The position numbers were made by a program, and so were the translations under genes. A stretch of 21,021 bases of DNA, from the NCBI GenBank assembly GCA_036700905.1, contig JAUBPT010000012.1; one strand, 5' to 3'. Positions 2,807 to 19,588 of this stretch are shown one piece after another (the first letter of the stretch is position 1; the number at the start of each line of letters is the position of its first letter). The notes under the pieces were generated by a model. That model saw only the letters and a list, made by a program, of their open reading frames with translations. It was not told the DNA's origin and did no database searches. Origin of the DNA: Microcoleus sp. S13_C3. GTDB taxonomy: Bacteria > Cyanobacteriota > Cyanobacteriia > Cyanobacteriales > Microcoleaceae.

Positions 2807-4501
2807 ATGACCACTTCTGATACAAAAACGGGTCGGTTGGATAACAATGACTTTCTGTTTCCAGCTAGGTATATCGGCGGCTATACCTGGCTTGATGAAT
2901 ATGACTTAAATACAGATGCAATCGGGCAAGGAATCACACTTGCTCTGGATGCTACAGATCAAAGCAAATTTGACACATTCTTAGAAATTATAGATGCCAA
3001 TACGGGTAAGGTTCTTGCTGATAATGACGATGAGGGTGGTATTAGTACAAACTCATTAATTGCGCCTGGTCAGCCTTCCCAAAGTGGCGATATATTTGAC
3101 ATTTCAACAATTCCTGATTCTTTGACAATTGACGGCACTACCAAGTACAAAGTGCGCGTCTTTAGCGTGGATTCTGTTACCGACCTATTGTCTACTTATC
3201 CCTACACTTTACAGGCCACCGTTCCTAATGGTAATGTCAGTTTAGTTCCAAGAGGTAGCAACTTTAGCAGCCCTCTAACGGGCAGTACCGTTGCATTAAC
3301 TGGTAAATTGGAGGTCAACAAAGACTTTACTTTTCCAGGTATAGGTGGTAACACACTTGCTGATGAATTTCTCGTAAGTACATCACTCGACAACGAACCG
3401 CTCAAAATTTCCCTTAGCAGTACAACAATAGGCTTTGACCCTTTCGTAGCAGTCATCAGCCCTAAGAATCCCGAAATTTTTGTCTCAGATAATAACAGCG
3501 GCGGCGGTTTGAACTCACAGCTTACTGTTCCGCGCGCAGGTATTGATTACAGAATCCGCGTCAGCAGTAACACTACATTTCCCAATTCCACAGCTTCTGC
3601 TGCTGATTACAGTTTACAGGTCAGTGTTGCTCAAGGTAGCGTCACATTAACCCCTCGGAGTGGCGAAACTCTGCAATTAGGGCGCGGTGGTGGAAAAGTA
3701 CCCGACGCTTCCACATTGCCGGACGGTGTCATACCACCACTAGACCTTATTTTCACGCCTGTAACGATCGCAACACCAACAATTAATGCCCCCGGCTCAG
3801 GCAATCCTACAGGGCAATCAGCAAACACTGTTACGGGTCTATTTTACAACCTCTCAGACAGTAATGATGATATTTTGCTGTTCTCACTGCCCTCGACTGC
3901 TACTGGTAAACAAATCTTAGCCCTATCTGGCAGCGACAAGATTACTGGCACCAGCGGCGCTGATACGGTTAACGGAATGCAAGGAGCCGATACAATTGAC
4001 GGAGGCGCGGGTAATGACAGTTTATCCGGCGGTAAAGAGTCAGATTCCCTGGAAGGTGGTGCTGGCAACGACCAAATATTAGGCAACAATGACAACGATA
4101 CTCTTACCGGAGGAGAAGGCAATGATACTATCCGGGGCGGTAAAGAGAAAGATAGCCTGACTGGTGGTGGTGGCGATGACTTTCTCTATGGCGATCGCCA
4201 TCAAGATTTTCTCACCGGTGGCGATGGAAACGATACATTTGTCTTAGCTGGGGGACAGATAGCAGCGCTCAGTTTAACAGATGCAGATGTGATTACAGAC
4301 TTCAAGACTGGGGACAAAATTGGTCTCACCGACGGGAATACATTTGGCGGCCTCTCCTTTGAAAATGTCAGTTTGACTCTGACTGGACAACCTGCTGTCA
4401 ATTCTATAGCAATTAAAGTTAAAGCCGACTCCAGTTATTTGGGTATCGTTCAAGGGGTAGCGCAAAGCGCTTTGACGGCAAATGCTTTTGTGATTCTGTA
4501 G
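2807..4501 (+). CDS. Secreted RTX calcium-binding protein with two PPC (pre-peptidase C-terminal)-like beta-sandwich domains
   Basis: ATG at 2807 is preceded by GGTGAGG. Two segments have the PPC-like pattern (DTFLEIIDANTGKVLADNDDEGG...KYKVRVFS and FDPFVAVISPKN...DYRIRVSS...DYSLQVS). The C-terminal block is GADTVNGMQGADTIDGGAGNDSLSGGKESDSLEGGAGNDQILG.... The extreme C-terminus is paralogous to that of the upstream protein (ITDFKTGDKIGL...AIKVKADSSYLGIVQGVAQSAL versus ITDFSSEDKIKL...AIKSGDNYLGVVYNVNQSAL). Confidence 0.85.
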   Translation: MTTSDTKTGRLDNNDFLFPARYIGGYTWLDEYDLNTDAIGQGITLALDATDQSKFDTFLEIIDANTGKVLADNDDEGGISTNSLIAPGQPSQSGDIFDISTIPDSLTIDGTTKYKVRVFSVDSVTDLLSTYPYTLQATVPNGNVSLVPRGSNFSSPLTGSTVALTGKLEVNKDFTFPGIGGNTLADEFLVSTSLDNEPLKISLSSTTIGFDPFVAVISPKNPEIFVSDNNSGGGLNSQLTVPRAGIDYRIRVSSNTTFPNSTASAADYSLQVSVAQGSVTLTPRSGETLQLGRGGGKVPDASTLPDGVIPPLDLIFTPVTIATPTINAPGSGNPTGQSANTVTGLFYNLSDSNDDILLFSLPSTATGKQILALSGSDKITGTSGADTVNGMQGADTIDGGAGNDSLSGGKESDSLEGGAGNDQILGNNDNDTLTGGEGNDTIRGGKEKDSLTGGGGDDFLYGDRHQDFLTGGDGNDTFVLAGGQIAALSLTDADVITDFKTGDKIGLTDGNTFGGLSFENVSLTLTGQPAVNSIAIKVKADSSYLGIVQGVAQSALTANAFVIL

Positions 4502-4681
4502 CATGGGCTTTGTCCACTCTATTTGAGTGAAATTAATCGCGATCGCCTTTGAGTTTGAGAGGAGGCGATCGCACTTGTATTCTTCCTGTGCGAGGGGCGA
4601 TCGCACTCATCACCGTGTGCCAGTTGCGTCCATGACCACGAATTTCAAAGGTGGTACCCGCCACGTGATTTATCCGTGGGA

Positions 4682-4771
4682 TCAATCCAAAATCTAAAAT
4701 CTAAAATCCTCAAGCCCCCGAATTGATCTCGCGCAAGTCAATCCAAAATCGAAAATCTAAAATCTAAAATC
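4682..4771 (+). repeat. Two blocks of tandem heptamers (CTAAAAT / AAAATCT), STRR-like
   Basis: TCAATCCAAAATCTAAAATCTAAAATC lies at 4682-4708 (3 units). TCAATCCAAAATCGAAAATCTAAAATCTAAAATC lies at 4738-4771 (4 units). A C-rich tract follows (CCCCATCCCCCCATC...). Confidence 0.85.
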
Positions 4772-4886
4772 GAATGACTGTCCTCATCTTCCCCATCCCC
4801 CCATCTTTTCCATCCCCATCATCCTCTTCTGCTCCTCAGCACCTATACTTAAAATTGGGATCTTACAGTTAATTTTTTTAAACCGA

Positions 4887-5156
4887 ATGTTCAGCATTGA
4901 CATCATTGTGAAAAATACGCCCGTCTCGCTGTCGGTGCAGCGGAAGTTGGAGGAAGACGCTGAGACTGTTTACCAGCAGGTACTGGCGGCGATTCGCAAC
5001 TCCCAACCGCAAATTTTGGAACTCACCTGCGAGAAAAATCCTGAGAAAAAGGTGGCTGTACTCAGCAGCGAGATTTCTGGGGTGGTGGTTTCTCAGAAAT
5101 CGGGGGCGTCATCTACAGGCAGATCCCCTGGTTTTGTCTCGATGACAGCAGAATGA
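4887..5156 (+). CDS. Small conserved hypothetical protein (89 aa)
   Basis: The ORF has cyanobacterial-like codon usage, and its stop overlaps the next ATG (ATGA at 5153-5156). The layout (IDIIVKN...LSV...EEDAETVYQQVLAAI...ILELT...KKVAVLSSEISGVVV...GF) resembles DUF3107-type small proteins from memory only, which I could not verify. Confidence 0.5.
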   Translation: MFSIDIIVKNTPVSLSVQRKLEEDAETVYQQVLAAIRNSQPQILELTCEKNPEKKVAVLSSEISGVVVSQKSGASSTGRSPGFVSMTAE

Positions 5157-5851
5157 GGGCTGGGGGTGTTGGTGCCGATATGAGCCAGTCAGCCGTTGCT
5201 GTGCGGGATTTGGGTTTTTGCTGGCCGTCGGGCGATCGAGTGTTGCAAGGTTGCTCTCTGGATGTACCCAAGGGCGAGTTTTGGATGCTTTTGGGCACTA
5301 ACGGCAGCGGCAAGTCTACGCTGTTGAGGCTGATGGCTGGGCTGCTGCACCCCCTGTCGGGGGAAATTGACCTGAGTGGACGGGTGGGGTTTGTGTTTCA
5401 AAACCCCGATCACCAATTGGTTATGCCGACAGTGGGTGCGGATGTGGCTTTTGGTTTGGTGGAGGAAAAGCTTTCTAACGTTCAGGTGCGGGCGAGGGTG
5501 GCGGAGGCTTTGGAGGCTGTGAATTTGCTGGATTTGCAGCGGCGGCCGATTTATGCTTTGAGTGGGGGCCAGAAGCAGCGAATTGCTCTTGCTGGGGCGA
5601 TCGCCCGTCACTGCGAAATTCTGCTGTTGGATGAACCGACGGCTTTGTTAGATCCTGATTCTCAGTTGGATTTGGTGGCGGCGGTGCAGCGGTTGGTGAA
5701 AAATCGGGGGATTACCGCTTTGTGGGTGACTCACCGTTTGGATGAGTTGAATTACTGTGATGGGGCTTTTTTGTTGGAAAAGGGCGAGGTGGTCGATCGG
5801 GGAGATCCGGCGCGTTTGAAGCAGCGGTTGATGCAAAGTCAAGATGTTTAG
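5153..5851 (+). CDS. ABC transporter ATP-binding protein, ECF/CbiO-like
   Basis: Walker A is GTNGSGKSTL, the ABC signature is LSGGQKQRIALAGAIA, Walker B is ILLLDEPTALLD, and the H-loop is VTHRL. The start at 5153 is coupled to the upstream stop by ATGA. The alternative start ATG 5180 (MSQSAVAVRDLGF) is equally plausible. Confidence 0.9.
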   Translation: MRAGGVGADMSQSAVAVRDLGFCWPSGDRVLQGCSLDVPKGEFWMLLGTNGSGKSTLLRLMAGLLHPLSGEIDLSGRVGFVFQNPDHQLVMPTVGADVAFGLVEEKLSNVQVRARVAEALEAVNLLDLQRRPIYALSGGQKQRIALAGAIARHCEILLLDEPTALLDPDSQLDLVAAVQRLVKNRGITALWVTHRLDELNYCDGAFLLEKGEVVDRGDPARLKQRLMQSQDV

Positions 5852-7238: not shown

Positions 7239-7451
7239 ATGGGACGAATTAGGCTGCGAGTTCGAGAATTTGCTCAAGAGAAGGGTTGGAATCTCACAGA
7301 AGTCTCCAAAAGAACAGGTATTCCATATACCACGATCATTACCTATGCGAACTCTCAGGGTATGGCAACTGTAGATTACACAGCTTTGGACAAGATGGCC
7401 CGTGCGTTTGATATTGCGATCGAGGATTTAGTGGAAATTCTGGAACAGTAA
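7239..7451 (+). CDS. XRE/Cro-C1-type helix-turn-helix protein, 70 aa (array copy 1, type A)
   Basis: MGRIRLRVREFAQEKGWNLTEVSKRTGIPYTTIITYANSQGMATVDYTALDKMARAFDIAIEDLVEILEQ. The start is set at the internal ATG 7239 because all five paralogs begin MG(R/L)IRLRVRE. The 5' extension to 7131 has no paralog support. Confidence 0.85.
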   Translation: MGRIRLRVREFAQEKGWNLTEVSKRTGIPYTTIITYANSQGMATVDYTALDKMARAFDIAIEDLVEILEQ

Positions 7452-7471
7452 ACTGATTTGTCAGCGGGAAA

Positions 7472-7684
7472 ATGGGGTTAATTCGGTTGCGAGTTCGAGA
7501 ACTAGCGCAGGAGAAAGGCTGGACGCTGAAAGAAGTTTCCGACAGAACGGGAATTCCCTACAGCACGGTTAAAAAATACGCCCAAGCTCCTAAAATGGCA
7601 ACGGTGGACTACACGGCTTTGCAGAAACTTGCTGCTGTCTTCGATTTGATGATCGAAGATTTGGTTGAGGTTTTGGAAAATTAA
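7472..7684 (+). CDS. XRE/Cro-C1-type helix-turn-helix protein, 70 aa (array copy 2, type B)
   Basis: MGLIRLRVRELAQEKGWTLKEVSDRTGIPYSTVKKYAQAPKMATVDYTALQKLAAVFDLMIEDLVEVLEN. It starts exactly 233 bp after copy 1. Confidence 0.88.
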   Translation: MGLIRLRVRELAQEKGWTLKEVSDRTGIPYSTVKKYAQAPKMATVDYTALQKLAAVFDLMIEDLVEVLEN

Positions 7685-7704
7685 ACTGATTTGTCAGCGG
7701 GAAG

Positions 7705-7917
7705 ATGGGGTTAATTCGGTTGCGGGTTCGAGAACTAGCCCAAGAGAAGGGTTGGACGTTGAAAGAAGTTTCTGAGCGATCGGGCATTCCTTACAGTACC
7801 GTTAGAAGTTATGCCCATTCTCCCAAACTGGCAACTGTAGACTATACAGCTTTAAACAAAATGGCTCGCGTGTTTGATATTGCGATCGAAGATTTAGTGG
7901 AGATTTTGGAAGAGTAG
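7705..7917 (+). CDS. XRE/Cro-C1-type helix-turn-helix protein, 70 aa (array copy 3, type C, A/B mosaic)
   Basis: MGLIRLRVRELAQEKGWTLKEVSERSGIPYSTVRSYAHSPKLATVDYTALNKMARVFDIAIEDLVEILEE. The N-terminal half resembles type B and the C-terminal half resembles type A. Confidence 0.88.
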   Translation: MGLIRLRVRELAQEKGWTLKEVSERSGIPYSTVRSYAHSPKLATVDYTALNKMARVFDIAIEDLVEILEE

Positions 7918-7937
7918 GCTGATTTATCGTTGGGAAT

Positions 7938-8150
7938 ATGGGACGAATTAGACTGCGAGTTCGAGAACTTGCTCAAGAGAAGGGTTGGACTCTCAGGGAA
8001 GTCTCCAACAGAACGGGTATTCCATACACTACGATCGCCACCTATGCCAGTTCTCCAGGCATGGCTACCGTTGACTACACAGCTTTGGACAAGATGGCTC
8101 GTGCGTTCGATATTGCGATCGAAGATTTAGTTGAGATTTTGGAACAGTAA
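7938..8150 (+). CDS. XRE/Cro-C1-type helix-turn-helix protein, 70 aa (array copy 4, type A')
   Basis: MGRIRLRVRELAQEKGWTLREVSNRTGIPYTTIATYASSPGMATVDYTALDKMARAFDIAIEDLVEILEQ. It lies 699 bp downstream of copy 1. By eye, 16 codons differ synonymously and 7 non-synonymously between the two. Confidence 0.88.
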   Translation: MGRIRLRVRELAQEKGWTLREVSNRTGIPYTTIATYASSPGMATVDYTALDKMARAFDIAIEDLVEILEQ

Positions 8151-8170
8151 ACTGATTTGTCAGCGGGAAG

Positions 8171-8383
8171 ATGGGGCTAATACGGTTGCGAGTTCGAGAA
8201 CTAGCCCAGGAAAAGGGTTGGACGCTGAAAGAAGTCTCTGACAGAACGGGAATTCCCTACAGCACGGTTAAAAAATACGCCCAAGCTCCCAAAATGGCAA
8301 CCGTGGACTACACGGCTTTGCAGAAACTTGCTGAAGTCTTCGATGTGATGGTGGAAGACTTGGTTGAGGTTTTGGAACGGTAA
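8171..8383 (+). CDS. XRE/Cro-C1-type helix-turn-helix protein, 70 aa (array copy 5, type B')
   Basis: MGLIRLRVRELAQEKGWTLKEVSDRTGIPYSTVKKYAQAPKMATVDYTALQKLAEVFDVMVEDLVEVLER. It lies 699 bp downstream of copy 2. By eye, 11 codons differ synonymously and 4 non-synonymously. Confidence 0.88.
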   Translation: MGLIRLRVRELAQEKGWTLKEVSDRTGIPYSTVKKYAQAPKMATVDYTALQKLAEVFDVMVEDLVEVLER

Positions 8384-8421
8384 ACTGATTTGTGATTTAG
8401 TTTTTGCACTTCTTGCAACAG

Positions 8422-8474
8422 TCCGTCGGGGGTTGAAACCCCCGCCTCAAAGCTCAAGTCGTCTAAAGACGACT
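8422..8474 (+). repeat. Bipartite hairpin repeat element, copy b
   Basis: TCCGTCGGGGGTTGAAACCCCCGCCTCAAAGCTCAAGTCGTCTAAAGACGACT. Hairpin 1 is CGGGGG/CCCCCG and hairpin 2 is AGTCGTC/GACGACT. Confidence 0.75.
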
Positions 8475-8535: not shown

Positions 8536-8590
8536 AGTCCACAAAGCGTGGACTTTCGCTTTGAGGCAGGGGTTTCAACCCCTGCCGGAA
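8536..8590 (-). repeat. Bipartite hairpin repeat element, copy c (inverted relative to copy b)
   Basis: The reverse complement reads TTCCGGCAGGGGTTGAAACCCCTGCCTCAAAGCGAAAGTCCACGCTTTGTGGACT. Copies b and c face each other across a 61-bp spacer. Confidence 0.75.
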
Positions 8591-8697
8591 TCTGGCAACA
8601 AATGCAAGATATCAGTTCGATCGCATTAATGCGGATATTGGAATTTTCCGGTTGTAGATTAGAGTCAAGAGTTGTTCATTCTGCCGGAGTTATATTA

Positions 8698-9189
8698 ATG
8701 CCAATTAATCGTCTGTCTGACATAGAAGAGAACTTGGAATCGCTGCGAGAGCAATTAGGGGGCAAGGAGAAGGCTCGAGTTTTAGCACGATTAGAAGATA
8801 AAACCCTAATTCAACAGCAAATTAGAGAGCTATGTAAGGAGATTCAGGAAGAGGAAGAAAAGTATTGGCAGGTTCTCGCTCAGCAAACGAAAACGGTAGA
8901 AATTCCCGAACATGAGGCAGAGATTATTGTTGCCGAGATTGTCGAAGAAGTTGGGCAAATTCAAGTGCAGGGACAGTATTCAGAGGAAGTGCTTAAGATT
9001 TTGCAGGAGATTCGGGACAAGCTAAACCAACCGGGAGCAACAGCGGCCGCGAAACTTAAAGGCGTAATCTCAAGCATTCCGCCGTTTGTAGGAATTTCCA
9101 TAGAGGCAGAATTGGATACAGAGAATTTTTTACAGCAGCATTTCCCAACGTTTCGGAAGTGGTCTAAGGAATTAGCAAAAAAGTCCTAG
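8698..9189 (+). CDS. Coiled-coil protein of unknown function; probable N-terminal module of the downstream NB-ARC/TPR protein
   Basis: ATG at 8698 has GGAG 8 nt upstream. The ORF-track start at 8509 runs through repeat element c and is unlikely. MPINRLSDIEENLESLREQLGGKEKARVLARLEDKTLIQQQIRELCKEIQEEEEKYWQ looks coiled-coil. An acidic stretch follows, then a hydrophobic Gly/Ala/Pro-rich segment (GATAAAKLKGVISSIPPFVGISIEA). The ORF ends at TAG 9187-9189, immediately after A_AAA_AAG. Confidence 0.6.
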   Translation: MPINRLSDIEENLESLREQLGGKEKARVLARLEDKTLIQQQIRELCKEIQEEEEKYWQVLAQQTKTVEIPEHEAEIIVAEIVEEVGQIQVQGQYSEEVLKILQEIRDKLNQPGATAAAKLKGVISSIPPFVGISIEAELDTENFLQQHFPTFRKWSKELAKKS

Positions 9190-9220
9190 ACCTGGAGCGA
9201 AAAACACTCAATCCAGGTTT
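9166..9220 (+). other. Putative -1 ribosomal frameshift cassette (SD-like AAGGA, slippery A_AAA_AAG, downstream hairpin)
   Basis: AAGGA lies at 9166-9170. The heptamer A AAA AAG at 9177-9183 is in the correct phase for the 8698-9189 frame (codons AAA 9178-9180 and AAG 9181-9183). The stem AGACCTGGA (9188-9196) pairs with TCCAGGTTT (9212-9220), giving 9 bp with one G-U pair and a 15-nt loop, starting 4 nt after the heptamer. The -1 frame is open from 9168 and continues into the NB-ARC ORF. Confidence 0.5.
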
Positions 9221-9293
9221 CACAAGTTTTTACCAACTATACGATATTCCCTCCGAACTAGGTTCAAAAAACTTTGTCGGACGGGATGAAGAG

Positions 9294-11717
9294 ATGCAGC
9301 AATTGCACGGATTGTTGCAGGATGGAAGGCGCGTTGCCATTGCCGCTGCGTCGGGAATGGGCGGCATCGGCAAGACAGAATTGGCATGGCAGTATGCAAC
9401 ATTTCACCGCGAGTGCAACACCTATCCAGCCGGGATTTGGTGGGTGTTTGTGCGGGAAATCGATTTAGCGCCGCAGGTGTTGCAGAAAGCGCTGCGAATG
9501 GGAATTCAGCCGCCGGATACTCTCGACAATCTGGAGGAACGGTTGCAATTTTGCTACGAAGAGTGGGCAAAACAAACCTCTGGCAATGCTCTGCTGGTAT
9601 TGGATGATGTCAACGATTACCGCACCGTGGAGCGGTTGCTGCCTAGAAATCCCCGCTTTAAAGTGTTGCTGACAGCGCGACAAATTGTGCCGTCGCCTGT
9701 GGGGTGTTTGCCGTTAAAAGTGTTGAAACCAAAGGCGGCGCTAAACTTGCTGTGGCTGACGGCAGAGGATTTGCCGGGAAACGGACTCGGACGGATTGAT
9801 GCCCAGCTTGAAGATGCTCAAGCGCTTTGTCAGTGGTTGGATTATTTGCCTTTGGGCATCGAACTGGTAGGGCGCCATCTGCGGCGCAAGCGGGCGCTCT
9901 CCTTGGCAGAAATGCTGCAACGGTTGCATAGTCAGCGATTGGAGGCGCGGGCATTGCAGGAGGCGGAAGCTGGGATGACGGCTAGGCGCGGAGTGGCGGC
10001 TGCCTTTGAGTTGAGTTGGGCGGAGTTGAACCCTCCGGCGCGGACGCTGGGGTGTCTGCTGAGCGTGTTTGCTCAGGCTCCGATTCCTTGGGAGTTGGTA
10101 GCCGAGTGTTTGCCGGGTTGGGATGAGGAGGAGTTGGAGGATTGTCAGGATTACGAACTGCTGGAACAGAGTTTGCTGTCGCTGGTGGAGGATGAAACCT
10201 CAGATTCGGGTCAATCTGGGCTGGTACAGCCACGCTATCAACTTCATGCTTTGATTCGGGAATTTTTTGCGGTCAAATTGCAGGGGCGCGCCGATGCTGA
10301 GGATTTGCGGAGAAGTTTTGCGGTGGCGCTGACAGACGTGGCGGAGACGATTCCGCAGACTGTAATGCTGGAGGTGCAGGAACGGGTGAAGGAGGCGCTG
10401 CCCCATTTGGAGGTGGTGGCGGAGCAATGGTCGCATTTACTGGAAGATAGTGCTGATGCTATGTGGTCTTTCACGGGCTTAGCGCGGGTTGCCGAGGAAC
10501 AGAGTTTGTGGGCAGAAGCGGAGAAATGGTTGAAAGCTTGCCTCCAGATGACAGAGAAACGCTGCGGAGCCGAACATCCCGATACGGCAGATAGTTTGAA
10601 CAATCTGGCAGCGCTGTACAAGGCAATAGGACGCTACCCGGAGGCGGAACCCTTGTGTATGCGATCGCTCTGGATCTGGGAGCAACAGCTCGGAGTCGAC
10701 CATCCCCATACGGCAACGAGTTTGAACAATCTGGCAGCGCTGTACGAGTCAATGGGACGCTACCCGGAAGCAGAACCCTTGTATGTGCGATCGCTCTGGA
10801 TCTGGGAGCAGCAGCTCGGAGTTGACCATCCCCATACGGCTCAGAGTTTGAACAATCTGGCAGGGCTGTACAGGGCAATGGGACGCTATTCGGAGGCGGA
10901 ACCCTTGTGTGTGCGATCGCTCGCCATCAGAGAACAGCAGCTTGGAGCCTATCATCCCGATACGGCTCAGAGTTTGAACAATCTGGCAGAGCTATACCGT
11001 GTAATGGGTTGCTACCTGGAGGCGGAACCCTTGTGTGTGCGATCGCTCGCCATTAGAGAGCAGCAGCTCGGAGCCTATCATCCCGATATCGCAACGAGTT
11101 TGAATAATCTGGGATTGCTGTACTATGCAATGGGATGCTACCCGAAGGCGAAACCCTTGTATGAGCGAGCGCTCGCCATTAGGGAGCAGAAGCTTGGAGC
11201 TGACCATCCCGATACCGCAACGAGTTTGGAAAATCTGGCAAATTTATACCGTGCAATGGATCGTTACTCGGAGGCGGAACCCTTGTTAGTGCGATCGCTC
11301 TCTATCTGTCAGCAGCAGCTCGGAGCCTACCATCCCTATACCGCAACGACTTTGAACAATCTGGCAGGGCTGTACAAGGCAATGGGTCGCTACCCGGAAG
11401 CAGAACCCTTGTATGTGCGATCGCTCTCGATCTGGGAGCAGCAACTCGGAGCCGACCATCCTCATACGGCATTGAGTTTGAACAATCTGGCAGGGCTGTA
11501 CGGTGCAATGGGTCGCTACCAGGAGGCGGAACGGTTTTTTCTGGGAGCATTAGAAATCTTGTTTAACCGATTGGGAGAAGATCATCCCGACACCCAAACC
11601 GTTTGGAGCAATTTCATTTATTTTCTCCAGCAGACCATATCAACTGGTCAAGACTCCCAACTTTCCCAGCATCCAGCAACGCAAGCAATGCTTCAGCAAC
11701 TTCGGGAGACGGAGTAG
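9294..11717 (+). CDS. NB-ARC domain / TPR-repeat STAND NTPase (NLR-like); 9294 is only the first ATG, and the frame is open and clearly coding from 9168
   Basis: The P-loop is GMGGIGKTELA, Walker B is LLVLDDV, KVLLTARQ is RNBS-B-like, YLPLGIELVG is GLPLA-like, and YQLHALIREF is MHD-like. About nine 42-aa TPR units of the kinesin-light-chain type follow (HPDTAxSLNNLAxLYxAMGRYxEAEPLxxRSLxIxEQQLG). Upstream of the ATG the same frame encodes ...YQLYDIPSELGSKNFVGRDEEMQQLH, the usual pre-P-loop FVGR-E-EL motif. There is no ATG, GTG or TTG between 9168 and 9293. Confidence 0.9.
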   Translation: MQQLHGLLQDGRRVAIAAASGMGGIGKTELAWQYATFHRECNTYPAGIWWVFVREIDLAPQVLQKALRMGIQPPDTLDNLEERLQFCYEEWAKQTSGNALLVLDDVNDYRTVERLLPRNPRFKVLLTARQIVPSPVGCLPLKVLKPKAALNLLWLTAEDLPGNGLGRIDAQLEDAQALCQWLDYLPLGIELVGRHLRRKRALSLAEMLQRLHSQRLEARALQEAEAGMTARRGVAAAFELSWAELNPPARTLGCLLSVFAQAPIPWELVAECLPGWDEEELEDCQDYELLEQSLLSLVEDETSDSGQSGLVQPRYQLHALIREFFAVKLQGRADAEDLRRSFAVALTDVAETIPQTVMLEVQERVKEALPHLEVVAEQWSHLLEDSADAMWSFTGLARVAEEQSLWAEAEKWLKACLQMTEKRCGAEHPDTADSLNNLAALYKAIGRYPEAEPLCMRSLWIWEQQLGVDHPHTATSLNNLAALYESMGRYPEAEPLYVRSLWIWEQQLGVDHPHTAQSLNNLAGLYRAMGRYSEAEPLCVRSLAIREQQLGAYHPDTAQSLNNLAELYRVMGCYLEAEPLCVRSLAIREQQLGAYHPDIATSLNNLGLLYYAMGCYPKAKPLYERALAIREQKLGADHPDTATSLENLANLYRAMDRYSEAEPLLVRSLSICQQQLGAYHPYTATTLNNLAGLYKAMGRYPEAEPLYVRSLSIWEQQLGADHPHTALSLNNLAGLYGAMGRYQEAERFFLGALEILFNRLGEDHPDTQTVWSNFIYFLQQTISTGQDSQLSQHPATQAMLQQLRETE
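10575..11600 (+). repeat. Tandem 126-bp repeats encoding the TPR array
   Basis: CATCCC(G/C)A recurs at 10575, 10701, 10827, 10953, 11079, 11205, 11331, 11457 and 11583, an exact 126-bp period. Confidence 0.9.
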
Positions 11718-12634: not shown

Positions 12635-14143
12635 CTACTTCATCTCATATCCAAACAAATTCGGATCGACTTCTCCCAAATTCAAATCAGCCAAACCATA
12701 CTCGGCCCAACGCCTTTCTACCATCGCCGCCACATCGGGATCGGACTCCAAAACTTCCCCCCATTCGTGATCTGTTTCCGGCGGCATCTTCGTAGTAGCA
12801 TCAATCCCCATTCTGCCTCCCAAACCAATCTTTTCACTGGCAAAATCTAACGTATCAAAAGGCGTATTCGGCAGAATAAATACATCCCGAACCGGATCGA
12901 CTTTAGAACTAATTGCCCAAACTACTTGACGCGGGTCGCGAATGTTGATACTTTTATCGACAACAATCACAAACTTAGTGTAAGTAAACTGCGGTAATGC
13001 ACTCCAAAATGCTAAAGCAGCCCTGCGCGCTTGACCGGGATATGCTTTATCGATCGAGATAATTGCCGCTTTATAACTCAGGGCTTCCATCGGTAAGAAG
13101 AAATCGACAATTTCCGATACTTGCTGCCGCAAAATAGGCGTATAAATACGGTTAAGCGCGATCGCCATCATTGCTTCTTCTTTCGGCGGCCGCCCGCTAA
13201 ATGTGGTCAGATAAATCGGGTCTTTGCGGTGCGTCATGCAGTGGAACCGCACCAACGGCGAATCTTCCACGCCGCCGTAATAACCCATGTGATCGCCGAA
13301 GGGCCCGTCGGGCAGAACTTCCCCCGGTGTAATCGTTCCTTCTAACACAATTTCCGAGTCCGCCGGTACTTCCAAATCTACGGTTTTGCACTTCGCCAAT
13401 TGCACGCCGGAACCGCCGTAAAGTCCGGCAAATAACCATTCCGATAAATCTACAGGAATTGGGGTTGCTGCGGCGAGAATAATCAGGGGATCGACTCCAA
13501 GGGCGATCGCAACTTCCAACTTTTTACCAGCCTGCGCCGCTTTCCGCAAGTGCCGCGCCCCGCCCCGCACCGATAACCAGTGTACAGTCATCGTGTTTTT
13601 TGACTGCAACTGCAACCGATAAACCCCCACATTCGGCGTACCCGTTTCGCAATCTTTGGTAATTACCAAACCCAGGGTGATAATTTTGCCCGCATCTCCC
13701 GGATAAGGGCGAATCATCGGGATTTTGTTCAAATCCAGCCCTTCTCCTTCAAATACCACTTGCTGACAAGCTGGGAAAAAGTCGCGGCCCGGTTTGGCTT
13801 TTACTACGTCAAACAGCACTTTGCCGAATTCTATCGCTTGGGAAATCTTTTTGGGCGGTTTTGGCTGTTGCAGCATTCCCAGTTTTTTGCCGAGCTCTTC
13901 TAGTTCGATCGGCTTTTCCATGTTCATCGCCCAGCAAACGCGCTCTTCCGTACCCAACAGGTTGATTGCGACGGGGAATTCGGCCCCTTTGACGTTTTCA
14001 AACAGCAATCCAGGGCCGCCTTTTTGCAGCATTTGGTTGGAAATTTCGGCAATTTCGAGGTCGGAATCGACTAAAGCGCTAATCCGGCGCAGTTGTCCCC
14101 GTTCTTCGAGTAGTTTTAGGAATCCCCGCAAGTCTCTAGCCAT
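12635..14143 (-). CDS. ubiD: UbiD family decarboxylase (4-hydroxybenzoate-prenyl decarboxylase, plastoquinone/ubiquinone pathway type)
   Basis: The protein is 502 aa. MARDLRGFLKLLEERGQLRRISALVDSDLEIAEI...GPGLLFENVKG is a typical UbiD N-terminus. GPFGDHMGYY and the rest are collinear with UbiD family members as I remember them. Confidence 0.9.
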   Translation of the reverse strand: MARDLRGFLKLLEERGQLRRISALVDSDLEIAEISNQMLQKGGPGLLFENVKGAEFPVAINLLGTEERVCWAMNMEKPIELEELGKKLGMLQQPKPPKKISQAIEFGKVLFDVVKAKPGRDFFPACQQVVFEGEGLDLNKIPMIRPYPGDAGKIITLGLVITKDCETGTPNVGVYRLQLQSKNTMTVHWLSVRGGARHLRKAAQAGKKLEVAIALGVDPLIILAAATPIPVDLSEWLFAGLYGGSGVQLAKCKTVDLEVPADSEIVLEGTITPGEVLPDGPFGDHMGYYGGVEDSPLVRFHCMTHRKDPIYLTTFSGRPPKEEAMMAIALNRIYTPILRQQVSEIVDFFLPMEALSYKAAIISIDKAYPGQARRAALAFWSALPQFTYTKFVIVVDKSINIRDPRQVVWAISSKVDPVRDVFILPNTPFDTLDFASEKIGLGGRMGIDATTKMPPETDHEWGEVLESDPDVAAMVERRWAEYGLADLNLGEVDPNLFGYEMK

Positions 14144-14376
14144 TTTTTTTAAGAATTGTTAACGTTCTTTTGTTATTATGAGCCGATCGACTGCCACAAG
14201 TTACTCCTGAACCGCTCAAAAGATACGTATTTAACGAACCGCGAAGACGCCAAGGGCGCGTTCGGCGAAGCCGTTCCCGTTCCCCGCAGGGGTTCGGTGA
14301 AGGGTAGGGTAGGAAGAGAAAGAAGAAGATAGGTAATGCCTTGTTGGGTTCGGGAGGAGGCTGCAATAATAGTTAC

Positions 14377-15816
14377 ATGAAATGTCCTCGATGTGAATCT
14401 GACCAACTTCGTAAAAACGGCCGTCCCAACGGTCATCAGCGGTATCTTTGCAAAGCTTGTCGCAAACAATTTTTAGAGCCGCCCAGTCCGCAGTCTTTAA
14501 GTCGCCAATGCACGGAAACACGGTTAAGCGAAGCTATCCCGCATGAAATCGCCCCTGCAACCACCATAGAGTCAGGCGGGATTGGGATTTTGCTGTTAGA
14601 TGCCGAAAATCTGAAACTTAAGCTTAATACAGAACAATTTTTAGCGGGTTTGTGCGACTATCCCCTGCAAGTTAAAATTGCTTTTGCTAACTGGAAAAAT
14701 CCGAGTACGGGGAAGTTGGATGCTGAACTTTACGATCGCGGTTACGAACTGATTCACGTTCCGGGCGGTGCGAATAGTGCTGATGGTAAGATGATTGCTT
14801 TTGGCGCTGCTATTTTATATCGATATCGGGATGTGCGACAAGTTTTTGTCTGTTCTTCGGATGGTTTGTTAAATCATCTTTGCAATCAGTTGCAAAATCA
14901 GGGAGTGACTGTGTTTCGGGTGCGTCGGCAAAATTCGGTTTTGTCTGTAGAAAATTGTCAGAATGGTGAGAGCAAGCACTATTCTTGCGAAAGGGAAGAG
15001 GAAATCCCTAGTTTTGAAGAATTGGCTAATCAAGTTGCAGAGTTGTTGAAGGCTGAACACAAATCTATTGATGAGCGAATCGCTCGGTTTTATAGTGTGG
15101 CTGAGCTTTTTCAAGAGCGCCGTAATGTTGCGTTCAATTCTACAAATTCCCCAGCAGCAGCACTGGCGGAGTCAGCACAAAACCAACTTCCCCCGGTGCT
15201 TGAACCATCTTTGGCGACCGTTGCTGTTCCTCCAAATATTGCGGAGCAAAATTTGCCAGAAATAATACCGGCTGTCAATTCAAAGGCTATTGAGTCGCTG
15301 GATGTTTTAAAAAATATACTTGTAGAAATAATTGACTCTGCAAAAAATGAGTTGAAAGAGGATGCTATTCCTGTAACAAGAATTAAGAAAGTTTTTTTTG
15401 CTAAATATCACTCTCATGCTGATTTAATTGTAAAAAGCTTTTTGGGTAAAACTTCTAGTTTAATCAAATTTTTGCAGTTGCAATCAGCTACTTTTAAAAT
15501 AAAATTAATCGGTACAGAACATCAAGTGGGACTCGTTCAAAAACCCTCCGATTCAAAAATTGAATTATCTGCCGCCCTCGAAGCATCGGTAGCAAAAATT
15601 GTAATGGCATTAACTGCTGAATCTCCAGGTAGTTACATTCCGATTCCCCAGGTAGCCGGCGAATTTAAAAAGCAATACGGTCAACCAATTACTAAAAAGC
15701 TGAAATCGCTGGATTTGGACACCAAATTTGCCGATTTTTTGCAGTCCTGTAAAATATTTAAAGTTAAGAAAAAAGGTAAAATTTATGAAGTGGCGATCGC
15801 ACAGTCCGCTCCCTGA
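14377..15816 (+). CDS. Zn-ribbon / NYN (PIN-like RNase) / tandem OST-HTH (LOTUS) domain protein
   Basis: The start is set at ATG 14377 (MKCPRCESDQLRKNGRPNGHQRYLCKACRKQF), a CxxC-N17-CxxC ribbon like the InsA/IS1-type N-terminus. The NYN motifs are ILLLDAENL, FANW, IHVPGGANSADGKMI and VFVCSSDGLLNHLCNQLQNQGVTVFRV. Two C-terminal LOTUS-like modules are present (IPVTRIKKVFFAKYH...FKIKLIG and IPIPQVAGEFKKQYGQPI...FLQSCKIFKVKKKGKIYEVAI). Confidence 0.8.
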   Translation: MKCPRCESDQLRKNGRPNGHQRYLCKACRKQFLEPPSPQSLSRQCTETRLSEAIPHEIAPATTIESGGIGILLLDAENLKLKLNTEQFLAGLCDYPLQVKIAFANWKNPSTGKLDAELYDRGYELIHVPGGANSADGKMIAFGAAILYRYRDVRQVFVCSSDGLLNHLCNQLQNQGVTVFRVRRQNSVLSVENCQNGESKHYSCEREEEIPSFEELANQVAELLKAEHKSIDERIARFYSVAELFQERRNVAFNSTNSPAAALAESAQNQLPPVLEPSLATVAVPPNIAEQNLPEIIPAVNSKAIESLDVLKNILVEIIDSAKNELKEDAIPVTRIKKVFFAKYHSHADLIVKSFLGKTSSLIKFLQLQSATFKIKLIGTEHQVGLVQKPSDSKIELSAALEASVAKIVMALTAESPGSYIPIPQVAGEFKKQYGQPITKKLKSLDLDTKFADFLQSCKIFKVKKKGKIYEVAIAQSAP

Positions 15817-17419: not shown

Positions 17420-17523
17420 TATGGGAATACCAGATCATCCGGCTGCCGGATAGCAGGATAAATGCGTACCCTACAAGCTTGTCTTTCGATCGAATATTTC
17501 GCTTTTTACGCAATAACTCGGCT

Positions 17524-18525
17524 ATGACCAATTTTTCCAAAAAACCGAAAATATCAACTCGGAAACCGACAGAAATAAACACAGAAGTAGATTTGACAGA
17601 TACTGCTGGTGAAGGTCTATGGATGGAGTCAGGATTTACAGTATTTGTATGGGGTTTTGCCCTAGCGACAGCGGGTACGTTGTTTTTGATGAGTGGGGTA
17701 ATTTTTAAAGATGCTTGGCCTGCTATTAGCCAATTTGGACTCTCTTTCTTGTGGAATCCCAAGTGGGATATCGGTGAGTTGCAGTTTGGGGCTTTGCCGT
17801 TTATTTATGGTACTGTAATTAGTTCTGCGATCGGCATAATCATCGCACTTCCTTTAGGGCTGTCAGTAGCTATAGTTACTAGCGAGAACTTCTTACCCGT
17901 TTGGGTGCGATCGCCCTTGGGATTCATGGTTGAATTAATCTCGGCCATTCCCAGCGTGATAGTTGGGCTGTGGGGAATCTTTGTTTTGATTCCCTTTTTG
18001 TTGCCATTGCAGCAGTCATTGTTCGATAATTTCAGTTGGTTTCCCCTGTTCAGCAGCGAACCTTTAGGCCCGGGAATGCTGCCTGCGGGAATACTGTTAT
18101 CAATTATGATTTTGCCCACAGTAGCCGCCATCAGCCGCGATGTATTGATGTCAGTTCCAGTAGATTTGCGAAGTGCTTCCATGTCCCTCGGCGCCACCCG
18201 CTGGGAAACAATATTCAAGCTGTTATTACCAGCAGCTAGTTCAGGGATTATCGGCGCCACCATATTAGCCTTGGGACGCGCATTAGGCGAAACAATGGCA
18301 GTCACAATGGTAATTGGCAACTCGATTCAAATTAACCCATCCCTGCTCGCTCCCAGCTACTCAATTCCTGCTGTTTTGGCAAGTCAATTTCGGGAAGCTG
18401 TCGAACCGCTGCACACGGGGGCTTTGATGTATTTAGCTTTAATTTTATTTGTCATCACTTTGTTGGTAAATGCGATCGCAGTATTGTTGGTTCAGCTAAT
18501 TGGCGCCAAAAAAGCTAAAACTTAA
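17524..18525 (+). CDS. pstC: Phosphate ABC transporter permease PstC
   Basis: It is a multi-pass membrane protein with an EAA-type loop (LGRALGETMAVTMVIGN) and sits between pstS and pstA. The start is set at ATG 17524 (MTNFSKKPK) rather than TTG 17479. Confidence 0.88.
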   Translation: MTNFSKKPKISTRKPTEINTEVDLTDTAGEGLWMESGFTVFVWGFALATAGTLFLMSGVIFKDAWPAISQFGLSFLWNPKWDIGELQFGALPFIYGTVISSAIGIIIALPLGLSVAIVTSENFLPVWVRSPLGFMVELISAIPSVIVGLWGIFVLIPFLLPLQQSLFDNFSWFPLFSSEPLGPGMLPAGILLSIMILPTVAAISRDVLMSVPVDLRSASMSLGATRWETIFKLLLPAASSGIIGATILALGRALGETMAVTMVIGNSIQINPSLLAPSYSIPAVLASQFREAVEPLHTGALMYLALILFVITLLVNAIAVLLVQLIGAKKAKT

Positions 18526-18607
18526 CATCATCGAAAGCAATTTGATCGCAAGCCGCGCAGCCAGATTTATCCCCTGCTTCAATCTCAAATCTAACATCTC
18601 AAATAAC

Positions 18608-19588
18608 ATGGATAAAACACAAAAATTAGACAGTATTCTGGATGCAGAAATCCATAACCCCCTGTCGCTAAGTCGAACTTTTTTCAGTCGGGGAATGACA
18701 GTTATCGCTTTCGCTCTGACAGCTCTCGCCCTGCTCCCTTTGTTTGCTATTTTATACAAAATTCTGGGGGAAGGACTCACACATTTGAGCTGGGAAGTGC
18801 TAGTGTCTCTACCAGCACCCGTCGGAGTTGAAGACCAGCCCAACGGCTTTGCCAATGCGATTCTCGGCACTGCTTTAATGGTAGGAATTGCGACATTAAT
18901 CAGCGTACCCATAGGCGTAATGACGGGAATATTTTTGTCGGAGTTTGGTAGAGAAAACAAAGCGATAGCCAATAGTATTCGGTTTATCACCGTCATTCTC
19001 AGCAGCGTTCCCTCGATCGTAGTTGGCGTCTTTTCCTACGCCCTAATTGTCGTTACCACCAAAGCATTTTCATCCTTAGCAGGCGGTTTCGCCCTCGCCG
19101 TCATCATGCTTCCAGTTGTTGCTCTGACAACAGAACAAGCATTAAAATTAGTGCCTACTTCTTACCGTCTCGCTTCTGCTGGTTTGGGATGCGGACGCTT
19201 TCAAACTATGTTTCGCATTATCATACCCTCAGCACTTCCAACTATTACCACAGGTATTTTACTCGCTGCTTCCCGGGCCGCCGGCGAAACCGCACCGTTG
19301 ATTGTAACGGCGTTGTCGAGTCAATTTTGGCCTCCTTTAGTTGATAAATTGGGCGAGATAATGCAGTCTCCCATAGGTGCAGAAACTATCTCAAAACTCA
19401 AAGAAATTCCCGAAACACTGCTGACTCCGACTCCTTCTATGTCGGTATTAATATATAGCTACGCCAGCTCTCCTTACAAGGATCAGAACGAATTGGCGTG
19501 GACTGCTGCCTCTGTCCTTTTGGGGATGGTTTTAATTGCTAGCGTCGCATCCCGTACAGTAACTCGGAAACGCTTGCAAAATCGATAA
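18608..19588 (+). CDS. pstA: Phosphate ABC transporter permease PstA
   Basis: ATG at 18608 begins MDKTQKLDS.... It is a multi-pass membrane protein with an EAA-type loop (ASRAAGETAPLIVTAL). The ORF-track start at 18500 would overlap pstC and run through non-membrane-like sequence. Confidence 0.88.
   Translation: MDKTQKLDSILDAEIHNPLSLSRTFFSRGMTVIAFALTALALLPLFAILYKILGEGLTHLSWEVLVSLPAPVGVEDQPNGFANAILGTALMVGIATLISVPIGVMTGIFLSEFGRENKAIANSIRFITVILSSVPSIVVGVFSYALIVVTTKAFSSLAGGFALAVIMLPVVALTTEQALKLVPTSYRLASAGLGCGRFQTMFRIIIPSALPTITTGILLAASRAAGETAPLIVTALSSQFWPPLVDKLGEIMQSPIGAETISKLKEIPETLLTPTPSMSVLIYSYASSPYKDQNELAWTAASVLLGMVLIASVASRTVTRKRLQNR

Follow-up and report, generated by a model that had tools for sequence, protein, structure and literature searches.

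A candidate programmed -1 frameshift cassette linking a helical module to NLR-like STAND NTPases in Microcoleus and other cyanobacteria

Conserved programmed frameshifts are few in non-mobile bacterial genes (examples being dnaX, prfB, copA and csoS2), and the sequence A_AAA_AAG is so shifty in Escherichia coli owing to the lack of tRNA-Lys(CUU). In E. coli dnaX this heptamer is followed by a stem-loop and preceded by a Shine-Dalgarno (SD) sequence about 10 nt upstream, and two N-coterminal products are made at a set ratio. The OrfA-OrfAB arrangement of IS3/IS911 elements also uses A_AAA_AAG, in a short overlap between a small upstream open reading frame (ORF) and a long -1 ORF without a start, with a downstream structure, and the fusion is the functional long form. 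In phage lambda G/GT, a -1 shift on a G_GGA_AAG-type slippery sequence near the end of a small ORF gives an abundant short protein and a rare extended protein which share an oligomerizing N-terminal part, and keeping this ratio fixed is believed to be important for assembly. The csoS2 gene of alpha-carboxysomes is a cellular, non-mobile gene in which an efficient -1 frameshift gives two isoforms (PMC5009743). Ribosomes are described as slipping on A_AAA_AAG and A_AAA_AAA, and transcriptional realignment as taking place on runs longer than A7, such as the A9 run of Thermus dnaX (PMC3711429). In this study, we analyzed a stretch of 21,021 nt from contig JAUBPT010000012.1 of Microcoleus sp. S13_C3 (the whole stretch is called the window here), in which an A_AAA_AAG heptamer lies at the end of a small module gene and in front of a start-less reading frame for an NB-ARC/TPR protein, and we regard programmed -1 ribosomal frameshifting, by which one gene would give two products, as the probable explanation of this arrangement.

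Some sensor NTPases are paired with a partner. In fungal NWD2/HET-S, bacterial amyloid pairs and NLR-ASC, the N-terminus of the sensor shares a domain or motif with a partner encoded adjacently, and in pairs of the NWD2/HET-S type the activated sensor is thought to template the assembly of this partner. Effector-associated domains (EADs) are coupled to STAND/NTPase conflict systems and act via homotypic contacts, and frameshifting is not mentioned in the work describing them (Kaur, Burroughs, Iyer and Aravind 2020, PMC7159879). The searchable literature, including the GeneTack survey, the Atkins 2016 recoding review, Kaur et al. 2020 and a 2026 STAND survey, yielded no report of a frameshift in NLR-like STAND NTPases and no description of an alternation among heptamer, A-run and in-frame fusion across one family. 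The mechanism proposed here would be known in kind, as a canonical cassette of the dnaX/IS911 type, and its use in NLR-like STAND NTPases appears to be new to the literature found.

The module ORF (8698-9189; all features of the cassette are on the plus strand) begins with ATG 8698, ends with TAG 9187-9189 and encodes by standard decoding a protein of 163 aa (MPINRL...ELAKKS), whose C-terminus reads FRKWSKELAKKS followed by the stop, the zero-frame codons being GCA AAA AAG TCC TAG on direct reading. The heptamer A_AAA_AAG occupies 9177-9183 in the X_XXY_YYZ phase, and a tandem -1 slip is proposed to take place on it; the zero-frame TAG, which terminates the free module, stands one codon past it. 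The -1 frame is open from 9168 to 11717 and contains no ATG, GTG or TTG before the ATG at 9294-9296, so that 105 nt without a canonical start follow the zero-frame stop. Since the -1 frame is closed upstream by a TAA at 9165-9167 and the zero frame stops at 9187, the frame change must fall within 9168-9186, a shift window of 19 nt. The -1-frame coding region (9183-11717, TAG at 11715-11717) encodes a linker beginning VLDLERKTLNPGF, an NB-ARC domain and about nine TPR units, and the product predicted for a -1 slip, ...ELAKK|VLDLERKTLNPGF..., has 162 + 844 = 1006 aa. The preliminary description of this locus had placed the two ORFs, the heptamer, the frame relation, the start-less segment and a downstream hairpin, and had expected a slip product of about 1,000 aa; direct reading confirmed all of these coordinates, and the predicted length agrees with the expected one.

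The downstream protein matches Pfam NB-ARC (E = 3.5e-12), TPR_12 (E = 2e-138) and TPR_10 (E = 1.9e-100) as well as NCBIfam FxSxx_TPR (300.6 bits), with FVGRDEE at 9273-9293 and the P-loop GMGGIGKT at 9354-9377. It is a STAND NTPase of the NB-ARC/TPR type (NLR-like), in which a P-loop NB-ARC is followed by a repeat sensor.

Compared with the systems introduced above, the locus has the same heptamer as E. coli dnaX, in the same phase and with a downstream stem-loop, and would likewise make two N-coterminal products; however, the dnaX shift yields the short product and that of the window would yield the long one, the hairpin spacer is 4 nt here against 6 nt in dnaX, and the proteins are unrelated. 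All the features listed for IS3/IS911 OrfA-OrfAB have counterparts in the window, with the predicted fusion as the long form, but the locus is no mobile element: it is without transposase domains or terminal repeats and keeps a stable chromosomal synteny in Microcoleus, between DUF4058 and UbiD. Lambda G/GT offers the closest functional analogy to the putative pairing of a free and an anchored module, although its slippery sequence is another one, its context is that of phage structure and the proteins are not homologous. The csoS2 shift makes the short isoform, unlike that predicted for the window, and the two cases are unrelated in protein, slippery site and biology.

Genome scanning yielded 25 loci (individual loci are designated L002, L003 and so on), 12 of which were Microcoleus orthologs with an intact arrangement; these, the window, one remnant (L014) and six metagenome contigs make up 20 independent assemblies. 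The A6G heptamer, the frame relation and the stop were identical in 20/20 of them. The 12 intact orthologs carry gcAAAAAAG (ccAAAAAAG in L005), an overlap of 22 nt and a -1 ORF of 735-932 codons, and they are syntenic with the window (DUF4058, helix-turn-helix (HTH) genes, the module/NB-ARC pair and UbiD). A DNA pattern scan of metagenomes which allowed A5-A8 returned six true junctions, all of them A6. A query of 210 aa across the transframe junction gave 452 protein matches, the best 120 of which (more than 100 protein clusters) cover the module part only, at 69-100% identity, the matched proteins being 162-213 aa long, mostly 163; among these best 120 the post-junction segment was uncovered and no in-frame close relative was found. 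On the protein side, the MPI[ND]RL start and the KK[SP] end before the stop were invariant in an alignment of 21 module homologs, and Lys161, Lys162 and the stop position were the same in 21/21.

The start-less segment itself behaves as coding sequence. Across 13 loci, the variable columns of 9190-9293 are distributed 2/5/11 over -1-frame codon positions 1/2/3, and stops are absent from the -1 frame and number one to three in each other frame; this third-position bias and the lack of -1-frame stops indicate that the segment is translated in the NB-ARC frame. Both halves of the gene are under purifying selection. These results bear on a second possibility raised in the preliminary description, i.e. 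that the A-run carries a 1-nt indel, from sequencing or assembly error, decay of a pseudogene or phase variation at the DNA level. Homopolymer runs are prone to indels, a relative of the A9 type (L015, a metagenome-assembled genome (MAG), discussed below) has A10 in frame, the module of L002 has a premature stop and L014 is truncated past the 5' arm of the hairpin. Against this, A6 is identical in 20 assemblies of different strains, species and sequencing projects, even where A5-A8 were allowed, none of the best 120 of 452 matches is an in-frame close relative, purifying selection acts on both halves, and across the lineages checked the required shift is always -1 and never +1. Run-length polymorphism of the phase-variable kind was not found across the 20 assemblies. 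An indel is thus very improbable, and error, pseudogene or phase variation can be regarded as effectively excluded at the assembly level; the comparison of orthologs that had been suggested as a check left the heptamer and frame change in place in all 20 assemblies, and among the best 120 matches no close relative has the two parts in one frame.

Two of the Microcoleus loci deserve separate description. In L002 (Microcoleus sp. K1-B1), the module is interrupted at codon 50 by a premature TAA (4148-4150), and the module gene is possibly a true pseudogene. In L014/L028 (Microcoleus sp. A006_D1), a TRADD-N-module protein of 406 aa (4001-5241) ends in gcAAAAAAGtccTAGacctggag of the window; past this point the L014 sequence diverges, the -1 frame is shut after 13 codons and the cassette is truncated after the 5' arm of the hairpin, so that it appears to be a remnant left by recombination or deletion. 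The gene adjoins a CyanoTRADDas_TM gene, HTH_26 genes and a DUF4058 fragment.

Downstream of the heptamer, 4 nt from its 3' end, a 9-bp stem (9188-9196 with 9212-9220, one G-U pair) encloses a loop of 15 nt, so that the hairpin spans 9188-9220. It is the minimum free energy fold (-13.1 kcal/mol, z = -3.97), and 0/200 dinucleotide shuffles were as stable. In 13 Microcoleus loci the arms are invariant save one U-to-G change in L003, and 6 of the 15 loop columns vary, a pattern which fits a structure without proving it. When the P site holds the first Lys codon, the stem would begin (base 9188) at about +11, where the ribosomal helicase engages mRNA, and judged from established ribosome structure this makes the 4-nt spacer plausible. 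An SD-like AAGGA, proposed earlier as a second stimulator, is indeed present at 9166-9170, 6 nt from the heptamer; its role as a stimulator was not upheld, since it pairs at background level and is lost in two orthologs, and the SD-like stimulator of dnaX therefore has no supported counterpart in the window.

Several of these measurements weigh against a frameshift signal. The hairpin lies only at the 7.8th percentile of native 42-nt windows from the same genes, the stem change in L003 is uncompensated and no compensatory changes were found in the Microcoleus hairpin over the 13 loci, and conservation of the arms is ambiguous because they also encode conserved residues. Compared with known cassettes, a spacer of 4 nt is on the short side. 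The duplex of AAGGA with the anti-SD sequence has -5.1 kcal/mol, which is equaled by 31% of in-gene background positions, and the site is replaced by AAAGT in L006 and L007; a strong SD-like site occurs in only 3/12 lineages, and cassettes of the dnaX/IS911 type can do without one. The heptamer alone is not rare either: 10 copies would be expected in the window, and 7 are present. What makes the site significant is therefore that phase, the 19-nt shift window and conservation occur together, and not the heptamer or the hairpin taken singly. Rfam gave no gathering-level matches in the window, and a permissive local Rfam scan of 9100-9300 gave chance-level matches only (E >= 1), none of which was a frameshift element.

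The same arrangement recurs throughout the module family. Searching 1.84 billion representatives with a profile led to 271 members at 50% identity clustering. Among 112 representatives with a near-complete module match, 101 terminate at the module C-terminus; 61 of these 101 carry KK among their final 12 residues, in many cases as the very end (...KK), and GK is the ending of a few others. Ten further lineages ending in KK or GK were checked at the DNA level (L025, L029, L030, L032, L034, L036, L037, L039, a Nostoc/Anabaena group and a Coleofasciculaceae group), and all have an in-phase slippery site or a longer A-run, with the zero-frame stop 0-9 nt past the slippery run, the partner always in the -1 frame and an overlap of 10-70 nt. 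In the seven short-run lineages besides the window (six with a heptamer, and L034 with A8), the stop directly abuts the slippery run. The -1 ORFs have from 417 to more than 1000 codons where the contig permits and encode a STAND-type or P-loop NTPase on contigs that are long enough, including NB-ARC-TPR, AAA_16-TPR, nSTAND1-WD40, nSTAND4/PDC-S60-like and other P-loop proteins.

Individual junctions read as follows: gcA_AAA_AAG TAG in L029 (NB-ARC-TPR), ctA_AAA_AAG TAA in L030 (AAA_16-TPR), gtA_AAA_AAG TAG in L032 (-1 ORF of at least 331 codons in the L033 copy, to the contig end), tcA_AAA_AAG TAA in L036 (at least 417 codons, to the contig end), ctA_AAA_AAG TAG in L025 (45 codons, open to the locus end), gcA_AAA_AAA TAA in L037 (NB-ARC-like, FVGRDEA...GMGGLGKT), A8 then TAA in L034 (nSTAND1-WD40, with a -1-frame TGA directly 5' of the run) and G_GGA_AAA TAA in L039 (P-loop NTPase). 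The Nostoc, Anabaena, Stigonema and Coleofasciculaceae loci have A9 or A10 followed by an nSTAND4-like NTPase of 714-720 codons (208 in L017), which matches the PADLOC candidate PDC-S60. An A always precedes the first Lys codon, though the preceding residue varies (A, L, V, S, P, E), and the Lys codons are always AAA-AAG or AAA-AAA, never AAG-AAA or AAG-AAG; in the six other lineages with the in-phase heptamer the preceding residue is A, L, V or S and its third base is always A. These fixed bases around the Lys codons support the view that selection acts on the nucleotide sequence itself. L013, the only module gene without a downstream ORF or a recognizable cassette remnant, lacks both KK and the heptamer (it ends in ...LGENS). 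Tandem repeats of the GGGCATA type follow this module at 1172-1250.

The main rival at the window locus is an independent start, that is, two ordinary adjacent genes in which the NB-ARC/TPR protein begins at ATG 9294 or is translated by coupling or re-initiation, the A-rich end reflecting only a conserved Lys-Lys. ATG 9294 is conserved in 13/13 Microcoleus loci and is the NCBI start of an 807-aa 'tetratricopeptide repeat protein'. Two points here speak against the frameshift: NCBI annotates two proteins, and the product from this ATG keeps nearly the whole NB-ARC domain, the Pfam match beginning about 3 residues upstream. In addition, several lineages have a TTG, GTG or ATG 33-87 nt past the stop, and the RPK-ending L026 and L038 (see below) lack a slippery heptamer and have a GTG in the 3' arm of the post-stop hairpin, a classic layout for coupling. 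We nevertheless consider an independent start unlikely, because the 105 nt before ATG 9294 vary with a third-position bias in the -1 frame and hold no -1-frame stop, in L029 and L037 the first start lies within or after the conserved PHNLxLxG...FVGR, and a near-cognate CTG at 9192 is lost in L003. Moreover, the heptamer wobble and the preceding bases are fixed beyond what KK requires, L039 uses G_GGA_AAA instead, and, as described next, starts are remote in most Nostoc-type loci and in-frame relatives are collinear with the transframe products.

In 6/8 loci of the A9/A10 type, the first canonical start lies 537-780 nt past the stop, beyond the P-loop GDEQSGKT, which means that production of this NTPase requires a frame change. 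The in-frame L015, with A10 rather than A9, aligns with the predicted transframe product of L019 over 874 residues without gaps at 79% identity (INRTIKKKTDSLTSSE against INRTIKKKTDDLSYSE), and in the same way the in-frame P0181 (module-nSTAND1, 1169 aa) matches the transframe product predicted for L034 at 58% over 635 residues spanning the junction. These in-frame relatives, being collinear with the predicted transframe products, confirm the junction.

Among L015, L016, L019 and L022-L024, L015 (Chroococcales MAG, 4480-4500) is the only in-frame relative of the Nostoc type, and its A10 may reflect a naturally fused allele, slippage at the DNA level or an error in assembling the homopolymer. 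In L021, from the complete genome of Anabaena azotica, A10 stands directly before TAA and the -1 shift is still needed. The NTPase of L019 (4486-6627), like that of L015, matches the PADLOC phage-defense candidate PDC-S60 (E = 3e-82, profile positions 190-903), and the N-terminal 150-190 positions of this profile are not the module, which indicates that the same NTPase occurs elsewhere with a different N-terminal domain.

The long runs bring in another explanation, in which the shift is programmed but transcriptional: RNA polymerase would add one A, placing a fraction of the mRNAs in frame. One inserted A equals a -1 shift, the junction of L015 differs from those of its A9 relatives by exactly one extra A, relatives with A8, A9 and A10 exist, those with A9/A10 have no downstream hairpin, and runs longer than A7 are documented for realignment (PMC3711429). 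For the window, however, this is quite unlikely. Its run is six As and a G, below the length for efficient slippage (PMC3711429), and the length of about 8-9 or more A/T seen in transcriptional realignment is reached only in the A8-A10 relatives. The heptamer lineages, including the window, have a downstream hairpin which transcriptional slippage does not need, and G_GGA_AAA of L039 contains only four As, too short for RNA polymerase slippage, yet obeys the tandem-slip rule. From the run lengths and the split in hairpins, transcriptional slippage is likely in the A9/A10 branch, as in Thermus dnaX with its A9 run, and for the window, with A6 and a hairpin, a ribosomal -1 shift is favored.

Hairpins of unrelated sequence stand 4-7 nt past the heptamer in most of the nine heptamer lineages. 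Against shuffles their z values are -3.1 (window), -3.9 (L039), -2.1 (L034), -1.9 (L032), -1.5 (L029), -1.35 (L036), -1.1 (L037), -1.1 (L025) and -0.5 (L030), and against the native background the nine together give a Fisher p = 1.7e-4. In the A9/A10 lineages no downstream hairpin was found (z -0.95 to +0.6; p = 0.44). At L039 (815-880), G_GGA_AAA TAA is followed by a strong hairpin (-17.2 kcal/mol, z = -3.9), and several representatives ending in ...GK suggest that G_GGA_AAA may define a sub-class. A distant subfamily (L026 3000-3070; L038 515-591) ends in ...RPK, ...DPR or ...NPQ, with Pro 1-2 residues before the stop; it has no X_XXY_YYZ heptamer and shows instead a C_CCC run, TAG and an immediate hairpin of 9-10 bp (z = -3.6, -2.7), whose 3' arm holds the first GTG of the -1-frame NTPase ORF. 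This layout looks like translational coupling or a different recoding signal.

Taken together, the A6G heptamer in 20/20 assemblies, the coding constraint, the recurrence over lineages and the collinearity with in-frame relatives argue for the programmed -1 frameshifting put forward in the preliminary description. Most ribosomes starting at ATG 8698 would stop at TAG 9187 and release the free helical module of 163 aa. A fraction would slip back one base with two lysine tRNAs on A_AAA_AAG, the hairpin probably slowing ribosomes at the heptamer, and would continue in the -1 frame to make the 1006-aa sensor protein (module, linker, NB-ARC and TPR). We infer from the site and its relatives that the shift is ribosomal rather than transcriptional, and the proportion of slipping ribosomes and the contribution of the hairpin are likewise to be read as predicted.

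The module is acidic (pI, the isoelectric point, 4.9; 18.7 kDa), and its AlphaFold2 model is all-helical (mean pLDDT, the predicted local distance difference test, 85), with a long helical hairpin followed by six shorter helices. The window module matched no Pfam, NCBIfam or PADLOC family; Pfam searches with 78 module members gave 4/78 weak, sub-threshold EAD9 matches (best E = 0.003), those with ten distant members gave no matches, and the module profile found nothing significant in PDB. Foldseek of the module model (m66f1eb85e05c, 8698-9186) against PDB likewise gave nothing significant, the top match being archaeal ESCRT-III CdvB (E = 0.5, template modeling (TM) score 0.36). Archaeal ESCRT-III CdvB/CdvB2 repeatedly took the top ranks (E 0.5 to 7, TM about 0.3-0.36, none significant), and the modeled shape loosely recalls polymerizing proteins of the ESCRT-III/PspA type, which may serve as a lead only.

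With regard to architecture, the module is found N-terminal, in frame or via the predicted frameshift, to at least four STAND-type NTPases (NB-ARC, nSTAND1, AAA_16 and nSTAND4-like), and C-terminal to TIR/SEFIR (L026), TRADD-N, SNF2, NACHT and LRR-Roc-COR proteins. It thus sits where STAND/NLR proteins carry an effector or adaptor domain, and from these terminal positions on NTPases and effectors it would seem to behave like an effector-associated adaptor. It resembles EADs as a small non-enzymatic all-helical module on the termini of core NTPases and effectors in multicellular cyanobacteria (PMC7159879); unlike the EADs described, it matches no Pfam EAD model, and its second copy would be the zero-frame product and not an adjacent gene. 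A second module copy in an adjacent gene was not found at any locus, there being one copy per locus. The difference from NLR/partner pairs is similar, as both copies would come from one ORF by recoding, and the shared part is a helical domain of about 160 aa and not a short amyloid motif.

By analogy with these systems, the zero-frame product would serve as the second copy and the frameshift would hold free and sensor-anchored module at a set ratio; the former could co-assemble with an activated NTPase oligomer, or could cap and restrain it. A wider interpretation, which we offer only tentatively, is that recoding is the standard wiring of adaptor to NLR in this family, a single-gene equivalent of NLR-ASC or NWD2/HET-S. 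One gene would give abundant free module and a rare module-NLR fusion, and the activated NLR oligomer would nucleate or recruit free module together with module-tagged TIR or TRADD-N effectors encoded elsewhere, giving a higher-order complex that would act in death or defense. Frameshift efficiency would then set the threshold of the trigger and could respond to changes in translation induced by infection, and heptamer plus hairpin, slippage on a long A-run and in-frame fusion would have been interchanged repeatedly.

If programmed frameshifting is the correct explanation, it would enlarge the set of recoded genes by an entire family (about 270 clusters at 50% identity), in a class that includes bacterial antiviral sensors. 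Within this family, the ribosomal heptamer, slippage on an A-run and in-frame fusion could be compared as natural answers to the same problem, and a fixed ratio of free to anchored adaptor would be a testable design principle for the activation thresholds of prokaryotic NLR-like proteins. In databases the gene appears in two pieces, a 'hypothetical protein' and a 'tetratricopeptide repeat protein' with a truncated N-terminus, so that surveys of bacterial NLR domain architecture miss the N-terminal module of these genes, and at Nostoc-type loci gene callers must start the NTPase far past the P-loop or call a pseudogene.

Some other features around the locus were recorded. Another AAAAAAG (18508-18514, plus strand) is located where two BPD_transp_1 permease ORFs (17479-18525 and 18500-19588) overlap by 26 nt, in the AAA_AAA_G phase and not in that of a -1 tandem slip; the downstream permease ORF has its own TTG start, and the pair are probably ordinary overlapping genes. 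Directly 5' of the module gene, five head-to-tail HTH genes of the Cro/C1 type (7239-8383, plus strand; 70 aa each; Pfam HTH_26, E = 1e-9) follow one another with an exact period of 233 nt and are about 70-98% identical. Orthologous Microcoleus loci have one to five copies, the length of the array varying by strain, and single copies also flank the TRADD-N-module gene in L028. Between this array and the module gene there is an inverted repeat (8404-8460 and 8551-8607) with arms of 57 nt, 82% complementary and 90 nt apart, each with GGGGTTGAAACCCC-like cores and without an Rfam match; it accounts for a spurious extension of the ORF upstream of ATG 8698 and could be a repeat element or a regulatory structure. 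Further downstream, next to UbiD (12635-14143, minus strand), an ORF of 491 aa (14341-15816, plus strand) contains both an InsA-type zinc ribbon (E = 5.5e-8) and a NYN ribonuclease domain (E = 7.8e-8), which is an unusual pairing.

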